Shown: piece by piece, positions 6,729-63,984 of the stretch | Layout: each line of letters begins with the position of its first letter | How positions within the stretch are numbered: the first letter of the stretch is position 1 | IMG/VR virus record: IMGVR_UViG_3300013137_002215 | Direction: 5' to 3' (one strand) | Source: an uncultured virus (IMG/VR IMGVR_UViG_3300013137_002215) | Taxonomy: Duplodnaviria > Heunggongvirae > Uroviricota > Caudoviricetes | DNA: 64,000 nt | The notes under the pieces: model-generated | Told to the model about the DNA's origin: nothing | Database searches by the model: none | The model's input: the letters and a program-made list of their open reading frames with translations, nothing else | Made by a program: the position numbers and the translations under genes

Positions 6729-7693
6729 CGTAATATAAATAATGGTACGTCTTCCAGTTTATTAGTAATCTTAACTAAACAATAAGCCTTTTTACGTATT
6801 CTTAACAATGCATTATCTATACTCTTAGTTCCACAACGCTTTCTTACAGCCGCAGAAACATTTTTAGCTATTTCTTTATAAGATGAACTATTTAAATATT
6901 CTTTTAAGACTATTCTTTCAAAAGAAGATAATGCGTTATACAATGTGTTTTTAGTTACATTCATCGCCTCATCTCTTTCCATTATCTCATCAGCTACGGG
7001 GTTCGGATCTCCTATTATATTTGAATAAGTATTTCTATTCTCGTCGTTTTCATTATCTATGTCCATAGGTGTACTATCTAAAGAAACTGCCTGATTCATT
7101 GACTGATCCTTTTTTCTGGTACGAGAAGTATTTAAAAGAGTTATTAAATGTCTTCTTATGCACATCTTGGCAAAATTTAAAAAACTCATACCTTTATGTT
7201 TCTTAAAATTAGGTATAGCTTTAAATCTTAAAGAAATTAACGATTCCTGATAGATATCAGATGATTGATACCCTTTAATATACGGAAATTTCTTTAAAAC
7301 AACACTAATCAGATATCCATGCATATAAAGATGAATTTTGTTAAATATATCCATGTTTCCAGGGTTTTTCTGCATTTTTTTAACTAAAGAATCAAGTTGT
7401 TTTTGAACTTGTTTTGGAGTTCCAATAATAGGATCTTTAACAACAGGAACCTTAAACAATATTTGCTCCATGTTACTTTTATTTTCTTTAGAATCTTTAT
7501 TTTCTATTCTTGTTACAACGTCTTCGTCTGCCGTATCAAGTATTTCTGCCTCTATCTTTTTAACATAGTTTCTTTTAAGTTTTTGAACATCTGATTTATT
7601 TTCTTTTTTTGTTTTCTTAAATATCTTTTTTATTATTTTATTTTTATGTAAATATTTTCTTTTTTTATGTTTTATAATATGCTTCTTGCGCAT
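6725..7693 (-). CDS. SigH-like RNA polymerase sigma factor with basic N-terminal extension
   Basis: SFLNFAKMCIRRHLIT, AVSLD, LSSFERIVL..SYKEIA, KSIDNALLRIRKK (sigma-H-like C-terminus). Confidence 0.8.
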   Translation of the reverse strand: MRKKHIIKHKKRKYLHKNKIIKKIFKKTKKENKSDVQKLKRNYVKKIEAEILDTADEDVVTRIENKDSKENKSNMEQILFKVPVVKDPIIGTPKQVQKQLDSLVKKMQKNPGNMDIFNKIHLYMHGYLISVVLKKFPYIKGYQSSDIYQESLISLRFKAIPNFKKHKGMSFLNFAKMCIRRHLITLLNTSRTRKKDQSMNQAVSLDSTPMDIDNENDENRNTYSNIIGDPNPVADEIMERDEAMNVTKNTLYNALSSFERIVLKEYLNSSSYKEIAKNVSAAVRKRCGTKSIDNALLRIRKKAYCLVKITNKLEDVPLFILR

Positions 7694-38083: not shown

Positions 38084-38116
38084 TTTGTTAATTTTCCATC
38101 TGTTTTAATAATATAT

Positions 38117-38474
38117 TGGAGGTGGGCGGAATTGAACCGCCGTCCCAAAAATAAGTTTTTATATCATCTACATGTTTAGTCTATATTTTCTTTTGCCTAG
38201 ACAAGCCGCACTAAAAGTTTTTACAAGAGCACACTTAGTATTTTAGTCACTCTATAGCAACTAATCATGAGCAGTTGCCAACTCAGTTCCCATTATATTA
38301 GTCGTACTCACGGATATTAATGGTAATTTCTCCGTTTTCCTATGCCGCTTTATTAAGCAGCCATTTTAAGTGGTTCGGCACTTATAACCGTTTTGTCGGC
38401 TTTTATGCTGGCCAACCGACAAACCAGCACATGCAGGTATATTATTTATTTCTGGTCGAAACCTGTACACCCCC
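38117..38474 (-). ncRNA. ssrA: tmRNA; tag reading frame AEPLKMAA (38353-38379)
   Basis: 5' GGGGGTGTACAGGTTTCGAC; 3' GACGGCGGTTCAATTCCGCCCACCTCCA with G3:U pair; pk1; ATAAGT-GCC resume codon; tag ends AA-TAA-TAA. Confidence 0.95.
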
Positions 38475-43789: not shown

Positions 43790-44458
43790 TTATTTTCTAT
43801 AAGCGAATATTCTATAACATGACAAATTTCTTCTTCGTATCCTACCAACAGTACGACATATACTATTTACACTTGTTACTATTTGGCTCATATCTACTGT
43901 TTCGTGTTCTAATTCAAAATTATTTAATAACAATTTATTTGTATATAGTTCTACAATACTTTTATAATCAAAATTTCTTATATCAAACGTCAAAACAATG
44001 CATCCTTGTGGTTTAACAAAATCAATTATGTTTTTTATAGCTGGTTCGTGCCATTTTACAGGAAAATGCTCTAATACACTTATACAACACACGGCATCAA
44101 ATTTTTCTTTAATTGATGGACGCACAATATTGTCTTTAATATATTGCATATTAAGATTTAAAAGTTCATTATATTTATATGAATTAATACTAAAAATATC
44201 AGTACCAATCACCTTGTTAAATCCAGTATCTTTTAATATAAAAATTCCTGGTTGTGTATTACCAGTACCAACATCTAAAACAGATTTATTATTTGTGTTT
44301 TTAAAATAAGAAATTAACACGTCTCTAAGCCATTTATATTCGTAAACTCTTGACCACCAGCCATTACTAAAAAAGTCCCATTTTATTTTATTATATGTAA
44401 ATTCCTTCATAATAGAATCTGTGTTTATAAAATATCTACTTCTAAATATGTTGTTCAT
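43790..44458 (-). CDS. class I SAM methyltransferase located inside the tRNA array
   Basis: WSRVYEY.W, VLDVGTG, FDAVCCISVLEH; start moved to the ATG downstream of the tRNA. Confidence 0.8.
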   Translation of the reverse strand: MNNIFRSRYFINTDSIMKEFTYNKIKWDFFSNGWWSRVYEYKWLRDVLISYFKNTNNKSVLDVGTGNTQPGIFILKDTGFNKVIGTDIFSINSYKYNELLNLNMQYIKDNIVRPSIKEKFDAVCCISVLEHFPVKWHEPAIKNIIDFVKPQGCIVLTFDIRNFDYKSIVELYTNKLLLNNFELEHETVDMSQIVTSVNSICRTVGRIRRRNLSCYRIFAYRK

Positions 44459-44561
44459 GATATATAATTCTAAAAATTTAAAATGGTCCCTGTATTGTTT
44501 TCTATAGTAGATGTTTAAAATAACTATCACTAAGGAGGCATTATAAAGAAAAATAGAAAAA

Positions 44562-44647
44562 TGGTGCTGGTGGTGGGACTCGAACCCACATAGTCTTTCG
44601 ACCCGCATTAAGAGTGCGGCATTCCAAACCAATTGAATCACACCAGC
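44562..44647 (-). tRNA. tRNA-Lys(CTT), long variable arm, CCA encoded
   Basis: CCGCA CT-CTT-AA TGCGG; V-arm GTC-GAAA-GAC. Confidence 0.9.
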
Positions 44648-44656
44648 CAAAAGTAA

Positions 44657-44748
44657 TGGGGCTGGTAGGATTTGAACCTACGACGGAGGCTTACGCCATC
44701 TTCGCATTAAAAGTGCGATGTTTTCGACCAATCTTAACTTACAACCCC
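44657..44748 (-). tRNA. tRNA-Lys(TTT), long variable arm
   Basis: TCGCA CT-TTT-AA TGCGA; ~20-nt V region containing GGC-GTAA-GCC. Confidence 0.88.
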
Positions 44749-44757
44749 GCAAAAAAT

Positions 44758-44834
44758 TGGTGATCGGGAGAGGACTCGAACCTCTGATAAAACAGGGTGT
44801 AGACCTGTCGCAGTTGCCGCTGTGCCACCCGACC
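44758..44834 (-). tRNA. tRNA-Val(TAC), C33, CCA encoded
   Basis: ACAGG TC-TAC-AC CCTGT; A73. Confidence 0.85.
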
Positions 44835-44842
44835 TAAAAATA

Positions 44843-44921
44843 TGGAGCGGGAGATGGGATTTAAACCCACGTAAAAATCTACACTGGCAATGTAGTGCCT
44901 GAATCACTAGGCTACTCCCGC
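44843..44921 (-). tRNA. tRNA-Gly(GCC), CCA encoded
   Basis: GCGGGAG acceptor, U73; CTACA TT-GCC-AG TGTAG. Confidence 0.88.
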
Positions 44922-44923
44922 AA

Positions 44924-45004
44924 AGCCGGAAGTGGGACTCGAACCCACGGTGTTTGTGTACCTGATTACGGATCAGGTGTAGTCGCCTCTGATACCATTC
45001 CGGC
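44924..45004 (-). tRNA. tRNA-Thr(CGT), C33, enlarged variable region
   Basis: GCCGGAA acceptor; CCTGA TC-CGT-AA TCAGG. Confidence 0.87.
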
Positions 45005-45014
45005 AAAAAAATAA

Positions 45015-45104
45015 AGCCGACAGTTGGATTCGGACCAACGCGGAAAGCTTTAAACTTTCGTCAGATTACAGATCTGATACTTTCAACCTCTCAGTCATGT
45101 CGGC
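45015..45104 (-). tRNA. tRNA-Thr(TGT), C33, long variable arm
   Basis: GCCGACA acceptor; TCAGA TC-TGT-AA TCTGA; V-arm GAAAG...CTTTC. Confidence 0.85.
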
Positions 45105-45109
45105 ATAAA

Positions 45110-45190
45110 TGCGGGTAGAGAGAATTGAACTCTCATCCTCTGCTTGGAGGGCAGTAATAATACGCTTTCGCTCCATTATACTATACCCGC
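45110..45190 (-). tRNA. tRNA-Gly(TCC), C33, hairpin inserted in D-loop
   Basis: GCGGGTA acceptor; CTGC CC-TCC-AA GCAG; D-loop insert GC-GAAA-GC. Confidence 0.85.
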
Positions 45191-45195
45191 AAAAT

Positions 45196-45272
45196 TGGTA
45201 GGCGTGAGTGGAGTTGAACCACCGTTAGAGCCTTATAAGGACCCCGTTCTAAAACCGTTGAACTACACGCCC
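45196..45272 (-). tRNA. tRNA-Ile(TAT), CCA encoded
   Basis: GGGTC CT-TAT-AA GGCTC; A73. Confidence 0.88.
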
Positions 45273-45274
45273 AT

Positions 45275-45303
45275 AAAAGGGTTTATTTTCATAACAAACC
45301 CTT
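45275..45303 (-). terminator. terminator-like hairpin inside the tRNA array
   Basis: AAGGGTTTGTT-loop-AATAAACCCTT, ending in a short T run. Confidence 0.5.
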
Positions 45304-45345
45304 ATTACCTCCCTAATATTCGATTTTAAAAGAACTCAAAAGATC

Positions 45346-45553
45346 CATAGTACTCAAGGATTTCACGCCGTTCTATATCAGATGCCTCCGATATAATCTA
45401 TCTTTTTCCTATGCGGTACTTAAGGATTTCACCAATGTTCTTGCTTAGAATGCCTTCTTAGCAATCTCTCTTTTTCCCATATTATTTATCTACTCATAAT
45501 AGATCAGGTTTTGCTGCCGTTTCCTTTCCCACCTGAAGTCTCTGTTTAACGGC
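45346..45553 (-). ncRNA. unclassified structured RNA: pseudoknot element plus two tandem ~68-nt homologous units
   Basis: Units share GGAAAAAGA.AGAT-[hairpin, GGCA loop]-GAAC..GTGAAATCCTTRAGTAC; stems differ in sequence but keep pairing. Confidence 0.65.
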
Positions 45554-45566
45554 TTGTAATAAATTT

Positions 45567-45658
45567 TGGTGGAGCAGGTGACGCTTGAAGTCACATTAAA
45601 ATGTCCAAAGACATGCCAGAGTGCAAATCTGGTGGACTGCCTCTTGTCCTACTGCCCC
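45567..45658 (-). tRNA. tRNA-Ala(TGC), long variable arm, CCA encoded
   Basis: G3:U70; CCAGA TT-TGC-AC TCTGG; V-arm ATGTC-TTTG-GACAT. Confidence 0.9.
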
Positions 45659-45770: not shown

Positions 45771-45807
45771 AAAAAACAAAAAAGCCCGATTTAAAAATCG
45801 GGCTTTT
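45771..45807 (-). terminator. attenuator terminator (3:4 helix + U tract) directly before the first tRNA
   Basis: AAAAGCCCGATTT-TT-AAATCGGGCTTTT then TTGTTTTTT. Confidence 0.9.
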
Positions 45808-45829
45808 CCTATTCAATTTTCCTATAAAT

Positions 45830-63139: not shown

Positions 63140-63984
63140 AAATATCCTAGTTTTTTTAACAAGTTAACCGCATCATTATTTTTCATAAACTCATCTATTC
63201 TTTCTTTATATATTTCGTTTTTCCACCTATCAAGTTTATGATTACTGATCGGAGATGGACCGCCTACCCAACCTGGATCACTTATTACCGTTGTTTTTTC
63301 ATAATATTTTAATAACTGTTCGTCAAAATCTTCTTCTAAATATTCACATAGTTTTTTCAACTGCTCTTTTGGATAACTAACAAGGTCTTCATACCTTATT
63401 GCATACACTATATCACAACAACTCAATCCTGCACTTGTATCATTAACCCACCTTTCGACATCCACCCAATACTTCTTATATTTATGATTAGGATGAGATG
63501 ATGTTACAACGTTTCGTCCATCCCTTATAATATGTACCAACTTAACATGCCCGTCAAACAAATTATAAATATCCCTAAAAGCCGTTACATTTTTTGGAGT
63601 TTTTTCACACCAACGTCTTTTATTAAATTCAACCGAAATATTTTTTAAAGAATTTTTTATTATAGACAGTCTAAATGGTTTAGGAGTAAAAGAAAATGAC
63701 TCTCCAGGAATCGAATAAATTTGATTATGGGCACCTAAAATTGATAACAACAGTGTTGTTCCCGATCTTCCGCAACCACCCAATACTATAGGACATTTTT
63801 TATTATAGTTCTTTAAATAATACAATGATGGTAAAAAGAACTTATCTTGTGTTGGATTTTTTACCATATCATCAAATAAAACAACAAAATCTACCCTATT
63901 ATCTATTTCTATTGAATTTAAATCTTCTATGAACCCAATCTCTTGACTTTGAAAAATAATATTGCCCTTTACGTCTAAAAGCAA
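63136..63984 (-). CDS. sulfotransferase (5' end may extend beyond the window)
   Basis: GCGRSGTTLL, EKTP, IIRDGR.V..S, RYEDLV..P. Confidence 0.88.
   Translation of the reverse strand: MLLDVKGNIIFQSQEIGFIEDLNSIEIDNRVDFVVLFDDMVKNPTQDKFFLPSLYYLKNYNKKCPIVLGGCGRSGTTLLLSILGAHNQIYSIPGESFSFTPKPFRLSIIKNSLKNISVEFNKRRWCEKTPKNVTAFRDIYNLFDGHVKLVHIIRDGRNVVTSSHPNHKYKKYWVDVERWVNDTSAGLSCCDIVYAIRYEDLVSYPKEQLKKLCEYLEEDFDEQLLKYYEKTTVISDPGWVGGPSPISNHKLDRWKNEIYKERIDEFMKNNDAVNLLKKLGYL

Follow-up and report, generated by a model that had tools for sequence, protein, structure and literature searches.

Large phages carry tRNA arrays, and a few of them are known to make extra small RNAs from these arrays. Phage T4 produces two small non-tRNA RNAs, RNAC and RNAD, from its tRNA region along with the tRNAs, and their roles have stayed obscure for fifty years (PMC3014915, PMC9697503). 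Both are late RNAs that were detected by Northern blot (PMC9697503). The double-T-loop module is described in Lehmann 2013 (PMC3664808) by the pattern AGNNA ... UGNNA, with six residues and two stacked base triples. In the L1 stalk, RNase P and T-boxes this module stacks on the tRNA elbow, as outlined by Zhang and Ferré-D'Amaré (PMC4810234).

A 294-nt spacer in a phage tRNA array

The locus analysed here belongs to a large uncultured phage, of which a stretch of 64 kb (hereafter the window) was studied. Its genes include those for a DnaE-type polymerase, UvsX, a clamp loader, an SbcC-like protein, glycosyl- and methyltransferases and a tmRNA, and nearly all of them are carried by the minus strand. 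The only sequencing runs that hold DNA of the window are labelled as lake water metagenome; no RNA run is among those listed. The two units described below are covered by one of the runs, which may be the source of this DNA, and the other three hold fragments from elsewhere in the window, so that no variants of the units were seen. The tmRNA (38114-38474, minus strand) scored 109.9 bits and encodes the tag AEPLKMAA. A tmRNA with the tag AEDSKLLAA was found at positions 724-1111 of contig L037, which also encodes a 45% identical homolog of the 139-aa protein considered below.

The array consists of eleven minus-strand tRNA genes between 43714 and 45769, on which ARAGORN and Rfam agree. The gaps between them measure 2-35 nt with two exceptions, one of 775 nt, which is occupied by a methyltransferase ORF, and one of 294 nt (45273-45566). 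The methyltransferase ORF (43790-44560, minus strand) is placed between tRNA-Thr and tRNA-Lys. It matched Pfam Methyltransf_23/25 and a PHROG with the annotation tRNA methyltransferase, in both cases weakly; no relative of it was found in IMG/VR. Seven of the 11 tRNAs (Lys CUU, Lys UUU, Gly GCC, Thr CGU, Thr UGU, the gene at 45109-45191 and Ala UGC; 44562-45191 and 45567-45658, minus strand) are 79-92 nt long by virtue of extended variable regions, some with stem-loops of their own, in tRNA families whose variable loops are normally short. The gene at 45109-45191 (minus strand) was called as tRNA-Asn(AUU) by ARAGORN. Its CUGC / CCUCCAA / GCAG arm would yield the anticodon UCC (Gly), and its D region holds a GCGAAAGC mini-hairpin.

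The 294-nt spacer (45273-45566, minus strand) separates its 5' neighbour tRNA-Ala(UGC) (45567-45658, minus strand, 92 nt, CCA encoded) from its 3' neighbour tRNA-Ile(UAU) (45196-45272, minus strand). A coding role was rejected, as the spacer contains no ORF of at least 40 aa on either strand. Besides the two units, two further elements were seen on its minus strand. Upstream, at 45517-45552, a single-copy element recognised by eye consists of a 5-bp stem around a purine-rich loop with ACAGAGA and GGUGGGAAAGG words, which include AGAGA and UGGGA. With a second stem the element may form a pseudoknot. It has no comparative support and was not picked up by the models R1 or R2 used below. Downstream, an 11-bp hairpin at 45277-45303 (-11.7 kcal/mol) is followed by a short U run and ends 4 nt before tRNA-Ile. 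This hairpin may be terminator-like or may protect a 3' end; a terminator scan did not call it. Strong U-run hairpins at 45778-45809 and 45277-45303 (minus strand) end 4-8 nt 5' of tRNA-Phe and tRNA-Ile, respectively, and another is located in a 70-nt gap directly before tRNA-Gly of the related phage G010 (L085 minus-strand positions 7288-7357). Such hairpins before tRNAs may be leaky terminators, or may provide 3'-end protection for the RNA upstream of the RNase P cut.

The tandem units and their fold

Two units of 68 nt each, U1 (45414-45481) and U2 (45346-45413), are arranged head to tail inside the spacer on the minus strand. The original prediction had claimed two tandem copies of a structured RNA on the minus strand within the tRNA array, and the sequences that it quoted are present exactly. 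U1 comprises a weak closing stem P1, a 13-nt purine-rich 5' linker, the hairpin P2 (45463-45442; 9-10 bp with one A.A mismatch and a GGCA loop at 45454-45451) and a 25-nt 3' linker. U2 comprises a 5-bp P1, a 13-nt 5' linker, P2 (45395-45374; 9-10 bp, GGCA loop at 45386-45383) and a 23-nt 3' linker. P1 of U1 has three pairs, or 4/5 if two bases of the U2 P1 are borrowed, and its 3' strand may extend to 45412. The two conserved linker words were found without mismatch nowhere in the window except in U1 and U2, and only one other GGCA-capped hairpin with 8 pairs, at 63551 and rich in G-U pairs, was detected. U1 and U2 appear to be two copies of one autonomous non-coding RNA fold, with a predicted architecture of a short P1, an asymmetric invariant junction of ~40 nt and a P2 of free sequence with a fixed GGCA loop.

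A covariance model built from U2 alone (R1) was run with filters off on both strands of the 64-kb window. It found U1 at 35.8 bits (E 3.3e-7), whereas the best of the other 29 listed matches in the window reached 14.2 bits (E 0.47). In a structure- and model-guided alignment (A4), which holds the two sequences U1 and U2 only, 25 of 26 cells (96.2%) are standard pairs, compared with 30-48% when the 3' partners were slid by 1-3 columns. Both sides have changed in 6 of the 14 pairs (5/9 in P2 and 1/5 in P1), and the pairing and double-change values of A4 were attained by 2 of 500 column shuffles. Columns are identical at 35 of the 42 unpaired positions versus 10 of the 28 paired ones (Fisher p 9e-5; hand alignment of two sequences); within the unpaired positions, identity amounts to 12/13 in the 5' linker, 4/4 in the loop and 19/25 in the 3' linker. 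The stems have therefore drifted and yet still pair while the junction and the GGCA loop have stayed fixed, as expected of an RNA fold under selection in which the single strands are important in their sequence. These values bear out the earlier observation that the linkers are conserved and that the stems differ but can pair.

Folding energies of the locus are ordinary, with z values of -0.27 for U1, -1.01 for U2 and -0.91 for the tandem; the complete spacer has -1.43. The junction can be closed in several ways (P1, an AGGA/UCCU pairing and an extended rod), and these closures, at -8.7 to -10.8 with an MFE of -11.6, differ from each other by less than 3 kcal/mol. We put the probability that U1 and U2 represent a real RNA fold under selection at roughly 0.8. 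The units are a real and probably functional orphan structured RNA module.

The original prediction had described this RNA as unrecognised, and the check with Rfam covariance models agreed. With permissive filters, none of the 4227 families of Rfam 15 matched at E<=10 in 45250-45600, and at the gathering score the whole window yielded the 11 tRNAs and the tmRNA only. An identity as RNase P, T-box, tRNA, riboswitch or small ribozyme was rejected, with no Rfam match at E<=10. A tRNA or tRNA remnant was rejected also because ARAGORN and RF00005 call nothing in the spacer and because the P2 loop has 4 nt, not 7. The 3' linker of the units is T-arm-like minus one base, and the matching 5' stem strand is absent. 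An 11-codon frame in U1 was discarded as well: U2 has no start at the equivalent place and a stop after four codons.

Homolog searches and the nearest relative

Relatives of the units were sought by pattern scans, three in IMG/VR, one in 241 million metagenome records and one in GTDB genome contigs. The scans use exact degenerate patterns, so that diverged homologs would be missed, and the window itself is absent from all of the collections scanned in this way. Among the viral contigs, the 3' 16-mer was found in 24 stretches, none of which (0/24) carries the rest of the unit, the pattern of both linkers gave 12 stretches (0/12 real), and the 5' linker plus loop gave six (0/6 at E<=1 with R1). 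One stretch found with the both-linker pattern (L026) has a correctly placed 7-bp hairpin but was rejected, since it lies within an open frame of more than 1800 aa. Both linkers together were found in 11 stretches of the metagenome contigs (0/11 at E<=1). The 3' half was found in 10 stretches of the genome contigs, four of which reached E<=1 solely via the query word. The best of the genome contigs (L060, 23.4 bits) was rejected, as the match lies in a 136-aa ORF on the opposite strand and has no P2-type hairpin.

Megablast with 4 kb against the GenBank phages gave no match. Blastn with the spacer against 50,697 phage records gave 12 weak matches, all with E values of at least 1 and a coverage of at most 17%; T4-like phages are not among these 12, with the inclusion of T4 in the records unconfirmed. 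Eleven phage records reached via neighbouring or hallmark proteins were searched with the covariance models: R1 found nothing in five related records (0/5), and R2 found nothing in four (0/4) or, at E<=10, in two more (0/2). On six tRNA-array loci (72,886 bases) R2 with filters off gave a best score of 14.0 bits, which is the noise level, and when the spacer was compared by blastn with 455 kb of fetched loci, only the words by which the loci had been fetched came back. The search for homologs with a covariance model from the units, as suggested in the original prediction, therefore yielded none beyond U1 and U2 in the phage records searched. The 139-aa protein led to 8 loci at 38-45% (one of them merely a 14-residue match at 93%) with no tRNA arrays beside them, and the DnaE search led to 4 loci at 27-44%.

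A 429-aa protein encoded upstream of the array has 65% amino-acid identity to its counterpart in G010 and 48% to that in G011. G010, with a record that is 82% complete (CheckV), is the nearest relative found. Its tRNA-Ala has the same unusual D and T loops as the tRNA-Ala of the window, and comparison of the two revealed a 16-nt insertion in the variable region of the latter. G010 also carries a 75-nt tRNA-Ile(UAU)-like gene (L085 12741-12815, minus strand) that ends in ACCA and has an acceptor stem of 7 bp and the loop CUUAUAA. This gene, in which the D and T arms are atypical, was not called by ARAGORN and was missed by RF00005 at E<=0.001. Moreover, a Gly(UCC)-like gene of G010 (L085 12569-12657) has CUUCCAA and the same GCGAAAGC insert as the window gene at 45109-45191.

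In G010, tRNA-Ala and the Ile-like gene are only 10 nt apart, which means that the 294-nt spacer with both units is absent there. Either the spacer was inserted in the phage of the window or it was lost in G010. Since the spacer is missing from G010, the units are not conserved across the lineage as sampled. This lineage is very thinly sampled: a 31-base word of tRNA-Ala that is common to the window and G010 was found in G010 only in IMG/VR.

Candidate functions and known systems

In both units the 5' strand of P1 runs straight into GAA, and its 3' strand begins right after AGUA, in agreement with the original prediction, which had placed these words (as GAA and AGTA) beside the closing stem and read them as loop E. 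GAA opposite AGUA by a helix is the loop-E / sarcin-ricin (bulged-G) consensus. The residues concerned are invariant between U1 and U2 and thus leave no room for covariation. Further inside, unit positions 11-15 read AGAGA in U1 and AGAUA in U2, and UGAAA is present in both 3' linkers, with the A-type loop 5'. The six-residue core AGNNA...UGNNA is thus present in U1 and U2, where it flanks the hairpin P2.

Of the proposed double T-loop, the words, their order and the hairpin between them are present, but the words are frequent in shuffled sequence and their spacing is not that of RNase P. The pattern AGNNA...UGNNA arises in 26-37% of composition-matched shuffles of the linkers and the GUGAAA hexamer in 1.1-1.5% of shuffled 3' linkers; the minus strand of the window has 21 instances of AGNNA with GUGAAA 25-45 nt further on. 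The RF00010 consensus, shown on E. coli rnpB, has ACAGAAAacAgA before P12 and GUGAAAa after P12. The GUGAAA of the units corresponds to the J12/13 consensus of RF00010 and follows a hairpin as in RNase P. However, T-loop 1 is located 5 nt after P1 in the units versus 2 nt after P11 in RF00010, and T-loop 2 is located 7-8 nt after P2 versus 1 nt after P12, so the helix-adjacent placement of the T-loops in RNase P is not matched by U1 or U2. The spacing mismatch lowers the claim of a double T-loop and is not fatal to it, because known instances of the module differ in topology among themselves. The fourth position of T-loop 1, a purine in the RF00010 consensus and in E. coli, is a U in U2. The platform pair of the module joins the central residue of one loop with the penultimate residue before the other and is mostly R:R in RNase P (PMC3664808). 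One candidate platform of the units is A with A in both; in the other, A would pair with G in U1 but with C in U2. As the T-loop residues are identical in both copies, no covariation is possible.

The double-T-loop reading is allowed by the data, and its support amounts to a modest coincidence. At present the tRNA-elbow hypothesis is based on a word pattern that is common by chance, and docking of the units to the elbow by a double T-loop is unlikely. That each unit would be a free-standing tRNA-elbow clamp, built as a double T-loop braced by loop E and excised from the phage tRNA precursor, is distinctly unlikely. In the portions of the literature on double or interdigitated T-loops, the tRNA elbow and phage tRNA arrays that were covered, no free-standing double-T-loop RNA and no motif of the units was found.

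A mechanism can be outlined in which the units would be co-transcribed with the tRNAs on the minus strand, as suggested by their context. A spacer RNA of ~294 nt would be freed by 3' maturation of tRNA-Ala and by the RNase P cut before tRNA-Ile; the RNase P site of tRNA-Ile would set the 3' end of the released RNA, and the hairpin at 45303-45277 would shield this new end. The invariant junction would form a compact tertiary core, with the loop-E-type GAA/AGUA step by P1 and the T-loop-type pentamers deeper inside, and this core would act as a binding surface. Because the units are located in a tRNA array, the likeliest partner would be tRNA, its precursor, or a factor that processes or modifies either of them. 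To the proposal that the module binds tRNA or the factors that handle it we give somewhat less than an even chance, and elbow docking, its most specific version, is the unlikely one already mentioned.

Among the other explanations, a structural repeat without a specific partner is rather unlikely, although it agrees with several observations. The units would then be an inserted and duplicated hairpin module, like REP/BOX-type or intergenic stem-loop repeats, that serves at most as RNA punctuation (exonuclease block, processing spacer) or is neutral. The spacer is an insertion relative to the 10-nt gap of G010, conservation outside the phage of the window was seen in none of the searches, and the extra hairpins in the tRNA variable regions indicate that hairpin insertions are seemingly common in this phage. 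On the other hand, only two copies are present in 64 kb, and inspection by eye revealed neither terminal repeats nor target duplications. The junction is kept at 35/42 positions and the stems have changed at 18/28, which is more constraint than a hairpin block needs.

The units could also be part of a regulatory leader. As a tandem of aptamers that recognise a small molecule, tRNA or, as in put-type antitermination, RNA polymerase, they would decide whether transcription gets past the hairpin at 45303-45277 to reach the methyltransferase gene and the nine tRNA genes that lie downstream. A closing helix, an invariant junction and a free peripheral hairpin make up the architecture of an aptamer, and the units have all three. 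The 11-bp U-run hairpin lies ~40 nt downstream of U2, and the AAAUCCUU of each 3' linker pairs with its 5' arm at -7.8 kcal/mol. This pairing is marginal: it is equalled in 2.4% and 4.3% of shuffles, and the arm has a stronger partner (-10.0) elsewhere in the spacer. Besides the missing terminator call for this hairpin, U-run hairpins abut the 5' ends of tRNAs where units are absent (45809-45778 before tRNA-Phe, and the tRNA-Gly of G010), and they therefore look like a general feature of the lineage. Together with the lack of any riboswitch or T-box family at E<=10, these points make a regulatory leader unlikely. Known systems to which it would be compared are the tandem-aptamer riboswitches and the phage put-type antitermination RNAs. 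Like these, the units are two homologous folded modules upstream of one terminator-like hairpin in an operon; they differ in that the alternative pairing with the hairpin is marginal, no family matches, and a contact with a ligand or polymerase is putative.

Ribozymes adjoining phage tRNAs have been reported, and a new class of small self-cleaving ribozyme, present in two copies, that helps to excise the spacer from the tRNA precursor would agree with the size of 68 nt, the invariant core between stems of free sequence, the arrangement in tandem and the polycistronic nature of the precursor. This is nevertheless very unlikely, as no hammerhead, twister, twister-sister, pistol, hatchet, hairpin or HDV-like match was obtained at E<=10 and RNase P with tRNA 3' processing is already enough to free the spacer. 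A DNA-level site (promoter, protein-binding site or origin element) or a chance resemblance is most improbable: a plus-strand promoter-like match (9/12) at 45458-45485 overlaps U1, but it is not repeated in U2 and was rejected as a promoter pair, the region is not enriched in such sites (15 found versus 12.4 +/- 3.3 expected), the palindrome that should be the conserved part of such a site is here the variable part, and chance is excluded by the R1 scores and the column shuffles given above.

With its free stems set against a fixed junction, the compact 68-nt module lends itself to chemical probing and to binding and structural studies. If the units do dock to the elbow, the double-T-loop device would work as a portable, stand-alone part and would point to a way in which phages manage their tRNA pools. 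Natural uses of the motif are the L1 stalk, RNase P and T-boxes; an elbow clamp would be the fourth and the first that is not part of a large RNA. The tandem could hold or chaperone the unusually long tRNAs of the phage, or capture host tRNAs. If elbow docking is false, the units would add to the orphan structured RNAs, here from a lineage of lake phages that is under-sampled.

In possible mechanism, the tRNA-binding reading comes closest to the J11/12-P12-J12/13 module of RNase P. As in this module, the hairpin of the units is preceded by AGNNA and followed by GUGAAA; unlike RNase P, they have no P13/P14 and no catalytic domain, and no RNase P model matched at E<=10. The distal platform of T-box Stem I (AG box and GNUG box) is more remote. 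It has the six-residue core pattern in common with the units (PMC3664808), and the tRNA elbow would be the same proposed partner if the reading is right (PMC4810234). In T-boxes, however, the T-loops are found in a bulge and the terminal loop of one stem, whereas in the units they would lie on either side of a hairpin. Neither a specifier loop nor a T-box sequence is present in the units, RF00230 gave no match at E<=10, and the units are encoded in a tRNA operon and not, as T-boxes are, before an aminoacyl-tRNA synthetase gene. Membership of the units in the RNase P or T-box family is not supported. By kind, the closest known RNAs are RNAC and RNAD of phage T4, which like the units are encoded within a phage tRNA cluster on the strand of the tRNAs. 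The units, whose transcript is putative, differ from RNAC and RNAD in forming a tandem of two 68-nt modules, and are filed with them under a loosely defined kind, the small RNAs encoded in phage tRNA clusters.
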